Origin: an uncultured SAR86 cluster bacterium
GTDB taxonomy: Bacteria; Pseudomonadota; Gammaproteobacteria; Magnimaribacterales; AG-339-G14
Assembly: GCA_902595715.1 (NCBI GenBank)
Contig: CACJRI010000004.1
Location: forward strand, 16,373-80,372
DNA length: 64,000 bases
Direction of reading: 5' to 3'
Shown piece after piece: positions 499 to 60,144 of this stretch. Within the stretch, counting starts at the first letter, position 1, and each line of letters begins with the position of its first letter. The notes under the pieces are model-generated. The model saw only the letters and a program-made list of their open reading frames with translations, searched no databases and was not told the origin of the DNA. Position numbers and translations under genes: made by a program.

Positions 499-1779
499 AT
501 GACTTTTATCGATTCTTTGAGGAATTATTTAAGTCCTCAAATTTTAGTAATCTTGTGCTTAGGTTTCATCTCAGGAGTGCCTTATGGCGTTCTAATGGAC
601 CCATTGAATTATTGGTTGTCAGAAGAGGGTATTGAAAAATCTACTATCGGTCTACTTTCTTTAGTTTTTTTAATTTATTCCTTAAAAGTATTTTGGGCTC
701 CTTTAGTTGATCGTTTAAAAATTCCAGGACTTCATATTTTAGGACAGAGAAAATCATGGTTATTTTTATCTCAGTTTGTAACTGGTTCAATCATATTATC
801 AATAAGTTTTGTTGAGCCTAAAGAAAGTTTAAATATCTTTGTTTATTTGATTCTTGCTATTGGTTTTTTTTCTGCCACTCAAGACATATGTGCTGACGCA
901 TTAAGAATAGAACTTGTTGAAAAAAGAGAGTTAGGCGAGGCATCAGCAGTTTTTGTTATTGGTTGGAGAATCGGAGCTATTTTGCTTTCTGGAGTAGCAA
1001 CCTTTTACCTAGCTGAATTATTTGGATGGAGTTTTGCCTACCAAATGATAGGCATAATTGTAATCTTTCTGTCTTTTATTTTTTTAATCCTCATTAGAGA
1101 GCCAACTAGAGAGATTAGACCGGCAAAAGATTTTTTTAAAGAACCTCTTGGATGGCTTAAAGATTCTTTTTTAGCTCCTTTAAAAGACCTTTACTTAAGA
1201 TATAAGAACCATCTGCTGCTATTACTTCTCTTAATATTTACTTATCGTCTTAGCGATATGTTTTTAGGCCCAATGGCTATGCCTTTCTATAGAGAAACAG
1301 GATTTACAAAAATTGAAGTTGCTGAAATAACTAATTTTTATGGACTTATCATGACTATCTTGGGCGGTCTATTTGCTGGAGCTTCAGTGCATCGTTACGG
1401 TCTTTCAAAAAATCTGGTTGCTGGAGCCATTCTAACTCCTCTAACCAATCTGCCTTTTATTTATTTGAACATGATTGGTCATGATGTAAATTTCCTCATA
1501 GTCACGATCACTTTAGATAATTTTACTCAGGGATTTGTGAATGTGATGGGCGTTACTATTCTCGGTACAATTGTGTCAAAAAGTTTTACCGCAACACAGT
1601 TTGCTTTTTTAGTGGCATTGGTTTCAGTGCCTCCAAGGATTGTTTCAGGGGGCTCAGGAATAATTGTCGATAATATGGGGTTTCATGAGTTTTTCATAAT
1701 TTGTGCTTTACTAGGAATTCCTGCAATTATTTTCTCAATAATGGCTCATAAAAGAAGGCAGGAACTGGGTTTTGAATAG
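499..1779 (+). CDS. ampG: AmpG family muropeptide MFS permease
   Basis: LGFISG.PY, YSLK.FWAPLVD, GQRKSW, SATQDI..DA.RIE and TATQFA motifs; about 12 hydrophobic segments; yajQ-ampG adjacency is typical. Confidence 0.88.
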   Translation: MTFIDSLRNYLSPQILVILCLGFISGVPYGVLMDPLNYWLSEEGIEKSTIGLLSLVFLIYSLKVFWAPLVDRLKIPGLHILGQRKSWLFLSQFVTGSIILSISFVEPKESLNIFVYLILAIGFFSATQDICADALRIELVEKRELGEASAVFVIGWRIGAILLSGVATFYLAELFGWSFAYQMIGIIVIFLSFIFLILIREPTREIRPAKDFFKEPLGWLKDSFLAPLKDLYLRYKNHLLLLLLLIFTYRLSDMFLGPMAMPFYRETGFTKIEVAEITNFYGLIMTILGGLFAGASVHRYGLSKNLVAGAILTPLTNLPFIYLNMIGHDVNFLIVTITLDNFTQGFVNVMGVTILGTIVSKSFTATQFAFLVALVSVPPRIVSGGSGIIVDNMGFHEFFIICALLGIPAIIFSIMAHKRRQELGFE

Positions 1780-53128: not shown

Positions 53129-53214
53129 GCCGGAGTGGCGGAATTGGTAGACGCGTTCGATTCAAAATCGAGTGCCCACAAGGCGTGAGAGTTCGAGTCT
53201 CTCCTCCGGCACCA
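53129..53214 (+). tRNA. tRNA-Leu (CAA)
   Basis: Acceptor stem GCCGGAG/CTCCGGC, D-loop GGAATTGGTAGAC, anticodon loop TTCAAAA, long variable arm, GTTCGAGTC, encoded CCA. Confidence 0.96.
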
Positions 53215-56315: not shown

Positions 56316-56480
56316 TTAAGCAGAATGTTTTACACCACGGTAAATACCGTTTTGTAACTTTCCTGACTTATCTGATTCCATAGCATCATGCTTTACGCCT
56401 CTGTAAACACCAGGTTGAGTTGCTTGCTTCTCAACGTGAAGGTTGTTTTCAGTGACTTTGATACCTCTGTAAGTAGACAT
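56316..56480 (-). CDS. 54-aa triple-YRG peptide (DUF4278/'downstream peptide'-like; not in the ORF track)
   Basis: MSTYRGIKVTENNLHVEKQATQPGVYRGVKHDAMESDKSGKLQNGIYRGVKHSA*; strong SD TGGAGG at 56490-56485; has its own terminator. Confidence 0.85.
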   Translation of the reverse strand: MSTYRGIKVTENNLHVEKQATQPGVYRGVKHDAMESDKSGKLQNGIYRGVKHSA

Positions 56481-56540
56481 ATCGCCTCCAGTTTTCGTTT
56501 CGATTATGTTTCATGTGCCTCACGGCATACACCCTCGTAA

Positions 56541-56678
56541 CGCGTTCCTTCGGTAGATATTCGGTCTCGTTCCCCATAAAAAGGTACTTGCTAGCCTTTC
56601 TACACATCGTGCAGAAAGAGGTTTTCCTATCTTCCTACTTCCGTTCAATGCACTAAAAAAGGGCACTGAATGAACGAT
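56541..56678 (-). ncRNA. glnA-motif (glutamine-I) riboswitch with a large structured insertion in P3
   Basis: CGUUCA...[P2 UUCAGUGC/GCAUUGAA]-CGGAAGUAGG...CCGAAGGAACGCG matches the glnA aptamer core (P1 CGUUC/GAACG, E-loop AGUA/GAA); lies upstream of a YRG peptide. Confidence 0.8.
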
Positions 56679-56686
56679 TAATGTGC

Positions 56687-56716
56687 ATTTTATCAAAAAA
56701 AATAACAGTTTGTAAA
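56687..56716 (-). promoter_or_regulatory. Putative sigma70 promoter for the riboswitch-peptide transcript
   Basis: TTTACA-N18-TAAAAT with an extended -10 TG; ends about 8 nt before the aptamer. Confidence 0.55.
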
Positions 56717-58316: not shown

Positions 58317-58391
58317 GTCCCCTTCGTCTAGCGGTTAGGACACCGGGTTTTCATCTCGGCAACAGGGGTTCGATCCCCCTAGGGGACGCCA
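58317..58391 (+). tRNA. tRNA-Glu (TTC)
   Basis: Acceptor GTCCCCT/AGGGGAC, anticodon loop TTTTCAT, GGTTCGATCCC, encoded CCA. Confidence 0.96.
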
Positions 58392-58568: not shown

Positions 58569-58925
58569 ATGAAACTGTTAACAATAGTCGTTAAGCCGTC
58601 CAGATCCGATGGAGTTAGGCGTGCTTTATCAACCATTGGTACTGGTGGAGCTACTATCATTTCTGCTCAAGGTTTTGGAACCCAAAAGGGTCATTCCGAA
58701 ACTTATCGTGGAGCAAGTTATGAAGTAGATACAAAACCTAAAACGATGTTTCAAGTAGCTTGTAAAGACGATGACGTCGAAAACATCATCCGAGCCGTGC
58801 GAGAAGTCGCAAATACCGGCGAAATAGGTGATGGCAAGATATTCGTAACAGAACTTAACGATGTCGTTCGCATCAGAACAGGTGAAACTGGTGAGGACGC
58901 AATAAAGGAGAATAGCAATGAGTGA
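58569..58925 (+). CDS. glnK: PII nitrogen regulatory protein (GlnK-type)
   Basis: GFG.QKGH.E.YRGA.Y T-loop, TGEIGDGKIFV, RIRTGE.G..AI; overlaps amtB. Confidence 0.93.
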   Translation: MKLLTIVVKPSRSDGVRRALSTIGTGGATIISAQGFGTQKGHSETYRGASYEVDTKPKTMFQVACKDDDVENIIRAVREVANTGEIGDGKIFVTELNDVVRIRTGETGEDAIKENSNE

Positions 58926-60144
58926 ATTAGAGTATGCTTTAAATACTTTTTATTTATTAATCTCTGGAGCCTTCGTAATGTGGATGGCTGCAGGATTTAC
59001 CATGTTAGAAGCCGGTTTAGTTAGAGCTAAAAATGTATCAGAAATTGTTACAAAAAATTTAGGTCTTTACTCTATCGCATGTGTCATGTACCTAGTATGT
59101 GGCTTCTTTTTAATGTACCCAGGTGATAGCGTATACAACGCATACTTCCCTATGATTGGCAGTACTTGGGGTATGTCTTTAGATGGCTTAACTTTCAATA
59201 CCGATTTAGGTTATTCAGATGCTGCTGACTTTTTCTTTCAGGTAGTTTTCGTTGCAACAGCAATGTCAATTATCTCTGGAGCAGTTGCAGAAAGAATGAA
59301 ATTAATTCCATTTTTCTTATTTGCCATCGTCTTAACAGGCTTTATCTACCCAGTCCAAGGTTATTGGAAATGGGGTGGCGGTTGGTTAGACGCTATTGGC
59401 TATACTGATTTTGCAGGATCGGGTGTTGTCCACTTATGTGGTGCAGCTGCTGCTCTTGCTGCGGTAATTATTCTCGGTCCAAGATCTGGTAAATACGGTT
59501 CAGATGGATCCGTTAAAGTTATGAGAGGTTCAAACATTCCAATTGCAGCTTTAGGTGCACTAATCCTTTGGTTAGGTTGGTTCGGTTTCAACGGTGGTTC
59601 TCAATTAGCTGTCAACGATGCTGCAAATGCAAATGCTGTTGCTCAAGTCTTCCTAAACACAAATGCTGCTGCTGCAGGTGGTGTAATAGGTGCATTACTT
59701 ATAGCTAAAGTTCTCACCGGTAAAGCGGATGTAACAATGGCTATTAACGGTGCTATTGCAGGACTAGTTGCTATTACAGCGGCTCCTGACACTCCCTCAG
59801 GCGGATTAGCCACAATCATCGGATTTATTGGTGGAATAATTGTTTACTTCTCAGTGGTCTTTTTAGACACAGTTCTTAAAATTGACGACCCTGTTGGAGC
59901 AATTTCCGCTCACGGTACTGTTGGTATTTGGGGAATCATGGCGACACCACTGTCTGGTGCTGGAGCTTTTGGAACTCAAGCAATAGGAGCTATTTCAATC
60001 TTCCTTTGGGCTTTCATATGTACTGCAGGAACTTTGTTAGTGTTAAATGCGACCATAGGTCTAAGACCTTCAGAGGAAGAAGAAACTTCAGGACTAGATG
60101 CTTCAGAAATTGGAGTGGAGGCTTATCCTGAGTTTAAAGATTAA
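58918..60144 (+). CDS. amtB: Ammonium transporter
   Basis: M.AGF.MLEAG.VR.KN, SGAVAER, DFAGS.VVH, LW.GWFGFNGGS, DDPVGAI..HG (twin His). Confidence 0.97.
   Translation: MSELEYALNTFYLLISGAFVMWMAAGFTMLEAGLVRAKNVSEIVTKNLGLYSIACVMYLVCGFFLMYPGDSVYNAYFPMIGSTWGMSLDGLTFNTDLGYSDAADFFFQVVFVATAMSIISGAVAERMKLIPFFLFAIVLTGFIYPVQGYWKWGGGWLDAIGYTDFAGSGVVHLCGAAAALAAVIILGPRSGKYGSDGSVKVMRGSNIPIAALGALILWLGWFGFNGGSQLAVNDAANANAVAQVFLNTNAAAAGGVIGALLIAKVLTGKADVTMAINGAIAGLVAITAAPDTPSGGLATIIGFIGGIIVYFSVVFLDTVLKIDDPVGAISAHGTVGIWGIMATPLSGAGAFGTQAIGAISIFLWAFICTAGTLLVLNATIGLRPSEEEETSGLDASEIGVEAYPEFKD

Follow-up and report, generated by a model that had tools for sequence, protein, structure and literature searches.

The type-1 glutamine riboswitch (glnA RNA; Rfam family RF01739) is known from the gifB/IF17 leader of Synechocystis, in which a junction of the helices P1, P2 and P3 with a loop-E signature lies in the 5' untranslated region (UTR) of a gene with the domain DUF4278 (PMC6212724). 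The glutamine-synthetase inactivating factor IF17 includes DUF4278 as one of its parts (Klaehn et al. 2018, PMC6212724). The sections of that paper on distribution place the riboswitch, among RefSeq genomes, only in cyanobacteria and otherwise in marine metagenome sequences of unknown owners. RF01739 is also listed in metagenome-assembled genomes (MAGs) of SAR86 (PMC12379486) and in marine myophages (PMC9004378). Here we describe a glutamine riboswitch that carries a second structured domain inside its P3 helix. It lies on the minus strand of a 64,000-nucleotide (nt) stretch of contig CACJRI010000004.1 (assembly GCA_902595715.1) from an uncultured SAR86 cluster bacterium, hereafter the window, upstream of a small DUF4278 gene with YRG repeats (the YRG gene).

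Loop E of the glutamine riboswitch has been described in the J2/3 junction (PMC12510878, PMC6698751). Glutamine binds in the P1 groove at C1:G59 and G2:C58 together with a G from the CGG strand; P3 points to one side and moves on glutamine binding, and its loop was swapped for a U1A loop in the crystallised RNA (PMC6698751, PMC5393176). Tandem glnA RNAs were noted by Weinberg et al. 2010 (PMC2864571). In the glutamine-II riboswitch (Downstream-peptide RNA, RF01704), a downstream helix has an AGUA turn in its loop, and the GGAACG immediately after this turn pairs with a 5' CGUUC (Huang et al. 2019, PMC6698751).

The leader described here shares with the gifB/IF17 leader the P1/P2/P3 junction strands, the loop-E signature and the position in the 5' UTR of a DUF4278 gene, and by analogy ON control of translation would be expected. 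It differs in that P3 holds a conserved three-way junction of 69 nt in place of a small loop, in that the host is a streamlined marine gammaproteobacterium or a phage, and in that a long expression platform without an obvious anti-Shine-Dalgarno (anti-SD) sequence after P1 follows. Like the tandem glnA RNAs (PMC2864571) it combines more than one structured unit in a nitrogen-related leader, and YRG orthologues of sister genera (L113, L114) do have side-by-side aptamers; here, however, the second unit is enclosed by the first, cannot be recognised as a glutamine aptamer and is in some leaders (L141, L198, L199, L221) accompanied by a tandem aptamer. The order AGUA-[hairpin]-G-GAACG of the inner domain relative to the 5' CGUUC is that of glutamine-II, a likeness read by eye. 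In contrast to glutamine-II, the inner domain has two extra hairpins and GAAAACC and GAGACC strands without counterpart, the base after its GAACG is an A, so that the long-range G-C pair is unavailable, and RF01704 gave no match at E <= 10.

Composite leaders with two modules on one mRNA are known from the tandem S-adenosylmethionine and adenosylcobalamin elements of the Bacillus metE leader and from a c-di-GMP-II aptamer next to a group I ribozyme. They resemble the present leader in a possible two-input logic, but their modules stand side by side, whereas here one is nested in a helix of the other. The original prediction, made from the letters of the window alone, knew of no nested variant, and our literature search likewise found no description of a nested glutamine riboswitch; Ames & Breaker 2011, Ren et al. 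2015 and supplements, including those of Weinberg 2010 and Klaehn 2018, were outside that search and may mention metagenome variants with a long P3. The accessory domain is undescribed, widespread and modular. The switch is found to precede an IF17-like gene that it would control in abundant, streamlined heterotrophic bacteria of the ocean and in T4-like phages, beyond its reported cyanobacterial range.

A conserved three-way junction in the P3 arm of a glutamine aptamer

The outer element matches RF01739 at 56539-56678 (minus strand) with 41.1 bits against a gathering score of 35 (Rfam cmscan). Model positions 1-53 are matched in full, and 80 nt are inserted between two P3 model pairs that are separated by about 6 nt in the family. 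All 49 leaders carry the strands CGUUCA, ACGGAAGUA and GAAGGAACGC and the AGUA/GAA signature without variation, and the terminal GAACG occurs in 143 of 143 nested elements examined. As in described members, the element lies in the 5' UTR of a DUF4278 gene. It does not stand beside a second complete aptamer, and the genome of the window (1.2 Mb, 83% complete) has a single aptamer match and no tandem pair. Judged by its strands and its context, the outer element is a bona fide type-1 glutamine aptamer; this part is itself ordinary, and what is new is the accessory domain.

The insert is made up of two hairpins, H1 and H2, and about 30 near-invariant junction bases distributed over the strands T1, T2 and T3 (Table 1). 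The junction bases include a second AGUA/GAA loop-E signature: the inner AGUA-CC..GG-GAA stands in the same register as the outer AGUA-GG..CC-GAA, and its sequence is that of a loop E. For comparison across genomes we used R1, a covariance model of the insert alone, built from 50 sequences and comprising 65 positions and 16 pairs. We worked with a structure of our own, since the RNAalifold consensus of the whole leader mispairs P1.

Single-sequence folding is not above chance. The 89 nt of P3 plus insert have z = -1.53, with 17 of 200 shuffles folding as well, and the 221-nt leader has z = -1.32. The evidence for the fold comes from comparison. In the R1 alignment of 83 distinct inner domains, 8 of the 10 H1 pairs show changes in both partners, with pairing retained in 97.5% of cells. 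The covariation score amounts to 0.260; shuffles give 0.073 +/- 0.006, none of 500 attaining the real value, and slid partners at most 0.070. These figures overstate independence, the domains being related to one another and their alignment fitted to the model. Compensations are also plain in the raw strings (UUUC/GAAA, UAUC/GAUA, CCUA/UAGG, CCAC/GUGG, UCAC/GUGA). The 84 unique elements show 27 strand combinations of P3, which ranges from 3 base pairs (bp; AAC/GUU, GAC/GUC) to 8 layers and is only 3 bp long in 10 of the 84. Free variation is seen in the two linker bases that follow H1, in the hairpin tips and in the loops, and the interior of H2 between CC and GG measures 4 to 26 nt.

The junction strands, on the other hand, hardly change. 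Since our scans fixed certain motifs, each strand was checked in sets collected by patterns that did not contain it. All 41 real viral matches of the T1..T2 pattern have GGGAACGAGACC exactly, 5 further matches being due to chance, and the string occurs in 51 of 52 order genomes, the exception reading GGGAAAGAGACC. AGC[A/U]AGUACC is found in all 60 viral matches of the T1..T3 pattern (41 with A, 19 with U) and again in 51 of 52 order genomes; G122 has AUUA for AGUA. The count given for GAAAACC in Table 1 includes domains found by a pattern that did not demand this string. Stems and loops that drift around fixed junction strands are the pattern of a specific tertiary or binding core, and the comparison supports the insert as a conserved, covarying three-way junction with a second AGUA/GAA signature.

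Most of what the original prediction had read from the letters is borne out. The P1, P2, J2/3, P3 and insert strings it listed stand at their places in the minus-strand RNA, its glnA assignment agrees with the Rfam score, and the nested junction that it saw repeating the AGUA/GAA topology is backed by the covariation of the 83 domains and the common register. Two details of the inner stems are revised. The inner stem exists, but H1 begins at the U of CCU (U.G, followed by C-G) and not at CC. The GG/CC closing helix holds for one invariant G-C pair, while two other positions alternate between AGG and CUG types (A.G plus G-C in 51 domains, C-G plus U.C in 32). Among the findings that the prediction had named as speaking against it, sequence can decide on two, a variable insert without covariation and a full match to an existing family, and neither was seen. 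Marine homologues have been collected, and their insert is conserved with covariation. In Rfam 15 (4227 models) the whole element finds RF01739, and the insert alone finds nothing better than a spurious small RNA match at E = 4. In a 401-nt region we saw no Rfam family overlapping the insert, no second RF01739 and no RF01704 at E <= 10. By this comparison the module belongs to no Rfam family.

Distribution and natural variants of the module

The RF01739 profile search of genomes missed the element of the window itself, presumably owing to the insert, and patterns were used instead. Within the family, 43 of 50 genomes contained the outer-aptamer pattern, and within the order 151 of 266; the matches from other families were mostly short aptamers, often in tandem. 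An insert-specific pattern matched 54 of the 266 order genomes, 52 of them real: 38 of 49 in family f1 plus the genome of the window, 3 of 139 in f2, and 10 of 47 in f3, all ten in one genus. Each of the 52 genomes has one module, always within a glutamine aptamer, and together they yield 49 distinct leaders.

Apart from these genomes, the module is present in 60 viral contigs, of which at least one belongs to a T4-like phage, in 95 metagenome contigs and in one Halieaceae-labelled MAG. The insert-motif pattern gave 41 matches in viral contigs (40 nested, 1 cut by the contig end) and 107 in metagenome contigs (88 nested, 7 cut but consistent, 10 chance coding-like matches and two special cases, L123 and L129). 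Among species-representative genomes there were six matches: three of the same group, one chance coding match, one MAG contig labelled Flavobacteriales of the phage-like type, and the Halieaceae-labelled MAG. On a 131-kb viral contig (L244) the cassette of riboswitch and YRG gene at 994-1058 (minus strand) adjoins the gene for a T4-like major head protein, within a structural module of head, scaffold, protease, portal, tube, sheath and terminase. The phage link consists of IMG/VR contigs; blastn of the leader against deposited phage genomes gave no match. The following matches were discarded as chance, being coding-like, without H1 and not nested: L104, L122, L126, L128, L138, L161, L183, L197, L214, L223, L224, L226-L230, G245 and G248, the last two being unrelated long matches.

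Two kinds of natural variants separate aptamer and module. A sister species (G026, 96% complete) combines the aptamer (47.7 bits for RF01739) with the same long platform and YRG gene but lacks the module; P3 ends in a 4-nt loop, R1 found nothing at E <= 0.1 in the searched part of the genome, and other members of the genus carry the insert. The reverse case is given by the two related metagenome contigs L123 (1140-1320, plus strand) and L129 (minus strand). Both keep the module (R1, 53 and 54 bits) on a P3 almost identical to that of the window in a P1/P2/P3-like scaffold. The strands CGUUC, CGGAAGUA and GAAGGAACG are gone, P1 is an 8-bp helix of AUUACUAC and GUAGUAAU, and RF01739 does not match at E <= 10. 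The DUF4278 ORF (open reading frame) is still downstream, with 25.3 bits exactly at the cut-off. Upstream of the scaffold lies a conserved block of 40 nt, and behind the scaffold follow the hairpin GGGACU-CAU-AGUCCC and GCAGUUUUU, which might be a terminator. Aptamer and module are thus separable in nature, which fits a two-input design and is no proof of one.

One rival explanation of the insert is that it is a passive extension which only stabilises or folds P3 or shields the 5' end of the mRNA and has no signal of its own. The foreign cap tolerated by P3 in the crystallised RNA (U1A loop, PMC5393176) and the dispensability of the module in G026 agree with it, and a stacked junction would help P3 to form in those unique elements in which it has 3 bp only. 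A helix cap, however, gives no reason to keep about 30 unpaired bases invariant in three bacterial families, in another order and in phages; a P3 length of 3 to 8 bp speaks against fixed docking on the core; and the module outlasts the glutamine core in L123 and L129. We therefore regard a merely passive role as improbable.

Leaders with several aptamers complete the picture. L113 (62.1 and 61.3 bits) and L114, from other genera, have two tandem short aptamers before orthologous YRG genes and a similar long platform. In the metagenome contigs L141, L198, L199 and L221 a short aptamer is directly followed by a module-bearing one, so that three structured units precede one YRG gene. Because these four leaders hold both a tandem aptamer and the module, the module is not simply a substitute for a second aptamer.

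A further riboswitch is seen in genus g3, where a second, canonical short glutamine riboswitch (L011:1478-1536, plus strand, 63.3 bits; at the same place in L012, L014, L017, L018, L020 and L021) is followed after P1 by an anti-SD-like GCAUCUUUC...GGAAGGAUG. Unlike the module-bearing aptamers it lies upstream of a gltB-like gene (GATase_2, 601 bits).

A putative second sensing site and its alternatives

The undescribed domain shows the conservation pattern of a ligand pocket. Our preferred reading, held tentatively, is that the module most likely serves as a second site of sensing: an orphan aptamer whose small-molecule ligand would be linked to nitrogen or carbon status. The insert would bind 2-oxoglutarate, glutamate or another compound as second ligand; ligand binding itself, the identity of the ligand and the route of its signal to the Shine-Dalgarno (SD) sequence are what we infer. 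The variable length of P3, the invariant junction and the persistence of the module without the glutamine core are taken as evidence that it is autonomous, with a function of its own. P3 points sideways, has a replaceable loop and moves, and a P3-borne domain would therefore be sterically free and on a moving arm. Given that P3 measures anything from 3 to 8 bp, the module is unlikely to make a rigid tertiary contact with the core of the aptamer and would act through itself; on the same ground we rejected a fixed tertiary clamp on the core. Since a real T4-like phage contig keeps the module too, a ligand of universal occurrence is favoured over a factor specific to one host.

In the mechanism we propose, the leader would be a composite riboswitch in which the ligand-responsive, outward P3 arm is capped by the autonomous 69-nt module and not by a loop. 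Once folded, the module would license the glutamine switch along one of two routes. It could stabilise P3, which is plausible where P3 has only 3 bp, or it could sequester its own GAACG so that this copy no longer competes for the P1 strand CGUUC. Both glutamine and a second cue would then be required for the small protein to be translated. It is possible, if doubtful, that the inner junction is a new aptamer class for a second nitrogen or carbon metabolite and the leader the first natural nested two-input riboswitch, this aptamer acting alone in leaders of the L123/L129 type with a decayed glutamine core. If a second signal is indeed sensed, the leader would be a naturally occurring case of nested allosteric RNA logic and its module a new orphan aptamer, for which natural variants already supply 'deletion' controls. 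The isolated domain of about 70 nt is directly testable in vitro.

Several observations weigh against a second sensing site. No ligand can be named from the sequence. P3 of the window type has 7-8 bp and should form without the module, so that coupling through P3 stability is weak. The outer P1 of L123 and L129 is a stable 8-bp helix, which obscures how a ligand signal would be passed on; moreover, both contigs were found by means of 21 fixed module bases, and only their remaining bases count as independent conservation. The G026 leader exists without the module. R1 found nothing in 150 other genomes of the class and, in the genome of the window, no copy besides the nested one; a free-standing copy did not turn up in these genomes. 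Finally, in the collected loci the module was never seen before any other gene family, which equally suits a gene-specific protein operator.

Strand exchange without any second ligand would explain part of the module. The GAACG of T3 would serve as an alternative partner of CGUUC in a pseudoknot-like helix as in glutamine-II, and the RNA would be held OFF until glutamine favours the terminal P1, giving a sharper response much like that of tandem aptamers. CGUUC and the inner GAACG are exactly complementary and both invariant, and the minimum free energy structure of the leader itself as well as the RNAalifold consensus of 49 leaders (pairs 4-130 to 8-126) pair CGUUC with the inner, not the terminal, GAACG. 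The glutamine-II sequence printed in PMC6698751, AGUAGGGAACG, likewise has an AGUA near the strand that pairs with the 5' CGUUC; the same paper equates the pseudoknot helix of glutamine-II with P1 of glutamine-I, and the order matches the inner AGUA-[H2]-G-GAACG. Tandem aptamers instead of the module before orthologous genes (L113, L114) would suit such a sharpening, whereas the four leaders with both argue against it. As all three strands are invariant, covariation allows no test, and once the GAA of loop E is given, an added 'CG' is expected by chance in 1 of 16 cases. Partition functions computed for 119 distinct aptamers assign the real P1 a median probability of 0.58 and the alternative one of 0.10; the alternative is ahead in only 31 of the 119. 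L123 and L129 keep GAACG without any CGUUC, and about 30 invariant junction bases are left unexplained. Taking these together, we consider a decoy strand unlikely to be the function of the module.

Loop-E and bulged-G motifs are classic protein-recognition sites. The inner junction could accordingly be an operator for a protein, the best candidate being the basic YRG protein encoded downstream, which would regulate itself, or else a general RNA-binding or ribosomal protein. Every one of the 136 distinct downstream regions with 300 nt or more of flank available, those of phages and of L123 and L129 included, has a YRG ORF 3' of the element, and the retention of the module in these two contigs, where glutamine sensing is lost, fits a stand-alone operator. 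YRG genes with the same platform but without the module (G026; with tandem aptamers, L113 and L114) stand against this, and their proteins show no obvious change on reading by eye. The chance that the module is an operator is small in our view, although the exclusive gene link makes such an operator, possibly for the YRG protein, a serious rival of the second sensing site. Even as a decoy strand or a protein operator, the module would show a minimal riboswitch elaborated to tune a potent enzyme inhibitor.

Leader layout, downstream gene and neighbourhood

Promoter-like sequence, aptamer, platform and translation start form a compact unit (Table 1). Transcription probably starts a few nt before P1, to judge from the promoter hexamers, which are kept in leaders of the same genus while their spacer varies. 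C56542 may by analogy be the linchpin C.

Table 1. Position of the leader, the nested module and neighbouring features in the window
Feature	Position	Strand	Remarks
Leader as self-contained unit	56478-56716	-	order: promoter-like sequence, aptamer, 60-nt platform, GGAGG, AUG
Putative sigma-70 promoter	56687-56716	-	-35 UUUACA 56711-56716, 18-nt spacer, -10 UAAAAU 56687-56692; read from sequence
Aptamer including insert	56539-56678	-	RF01739 match
P1 5' strand CGUUC	56672-56676	-	Rfam alignment; invariant in 49/49 leaders
P2 hairpin UUCAGUGC...GCAUUGAA	56644-56670	-	Rfam alignment; stem sequence changes between genera, pairing kept
J2/3 CGGAAGUA	56636-56643	-	Rfam alignment; outer loop-E AGUA at 56636-56639
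P3 5' strand GGAAGAUA	56628-56635	-	partner 56552-56559
Inner three-way-junction domain (model R1)	56560-56628	-	R1 77.4 bits, E = 1e-17
Junction strand T1 GGAAAACC	56620-56627	-	GAAAACC in 83/83 distinct domains
Inner hairpin H1 UCUUUCUGCAC-GAU-GUGUAGAAAGG	56595-56619	-	compensatory changes at 8/10 pairs; basal U.G and C-G constant
Junction strand T2 CUAGCAAGUA	56585-56594	-	inner AGUA at 56585-56588
Inner hairpin H2 (CC...GG, variable loop)	56573-56584	-	two invariant C-G pairs and a third covarying pair
Junction strand T3 GAACGAGACC and GAA bulge	56560-56572	-	holds second GAACG copy
P3 3' strand UAUCUACC	56552-56559	-	partner 56628-56635
Outer loop-E GAA within GAAG, and P1 3' strand GAACG (56543-56547)	56543-56551	-	Rfam alignment
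Platform hairpin GUAUGCC-GUGA-GGCACAU	56513-56530	-	compensatory changes at 5/7 pairs in 49 leaders (columns 170-176 with 182-188)
Shine-Dalgarno GGAGG	56485-56489	-	invariant in alignment A1; 4 nt before AUG (56478-56480)
54-aa ORF, three YRG(I/V)K repeats, DUF4278 (IF17-like)	56316-56480	-	Pfam PF14105 26.1 bits, cut-off 25.3
P-II (glnB/K-like) gene, then directly ammonium transporter gene (amt)	58569-60144	+	2 kb from the riboswitch, opposite strand
Two tRNA genes flanking the region	53129-53211, 58317-58388	+	

The platform (56481-56542, minus strand; columns 157-213 of alignment A1) is highly conserved and consists of GCGUU(G)AGAAGGGUGUA, a covarying 7-bp hairpin and UAUGUACGAAAUCGAAACGAAAACUGGAGG. 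The hairpin, which the original prediction had described as GUGA-capped, is upheld by its compensatory changes, and its loop is often a GNRA. The same long platform follows aptamers with the insert, without it (G026) and in tandem (L113, L114). It has no obvious anti-SD after P1. In the viral leaders L064, L077, L079, L085, L090 and L100, the platform after P1 has another GGGGAACGG string and a CUGUUC a few bases on; in platforms of the L064 type an AAUAGG...CCUAUU bracket could close a long stem just before the SD.

An anti-SD inside the insert had been proposed together with the hairpin. CCUC(U) at the border of T1 and H1 would pair with GGAGG in the unfolded aptamer, making the insert part of the expression platform. 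Of the 83 distinct domains, 81 keep CCUC unchanged, and long-platform leaders have no other pyrimidine stretch that is complementary to the SD; in some phage leaders 6 bp are possible (ACCUCC with GGAGGU), and predicted pairing of the SD with the CCUC segment reaches 0.76 in some leaders. The idea is weakened by short-platform leaders, in which CCUC is equally invariant although their SD pairs (predicted 0.72-1.0) with a pyrimidine anti-SD of its own directly after P1. In long-platform leaders predicted SD pairing is about 0.4 with inconsistent partners, the CCUC segment contributing 0.01 to 0.76 and, in the leader of the window, 0.02. L123 and L129 have CCGU instead, and the U and C of CCUC are the first two pairs of H1, which explains their constancy. 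An embedded anti-SD is very improbable, and on the predicted pairings of short- and long-platform leaders it was rejected as the main function.

Contigs from RNA libraries (four metatranscriptome runs) cover leader and ORF, one of them at a depth of 384 over 56380-56704. They say only that the sequence of leader and ORF is present in RNA libraries, as contigs show neither strand, ends nor level. Contigs from two RNA studies both end at 56704, about 20 nt upstream of the presumed start, and contigs cannot define transcript ends; a third RNA-library contig continues into a suhB-like gene.

The 54-aa DUF4278/IF17-like protein is presumed to be an inhibitor of glutamine synthetase. Besides the P-II and amt genes listed in Table 1, further neighbours of the riboswitch are the suhB-like gene and secDF-yajC.

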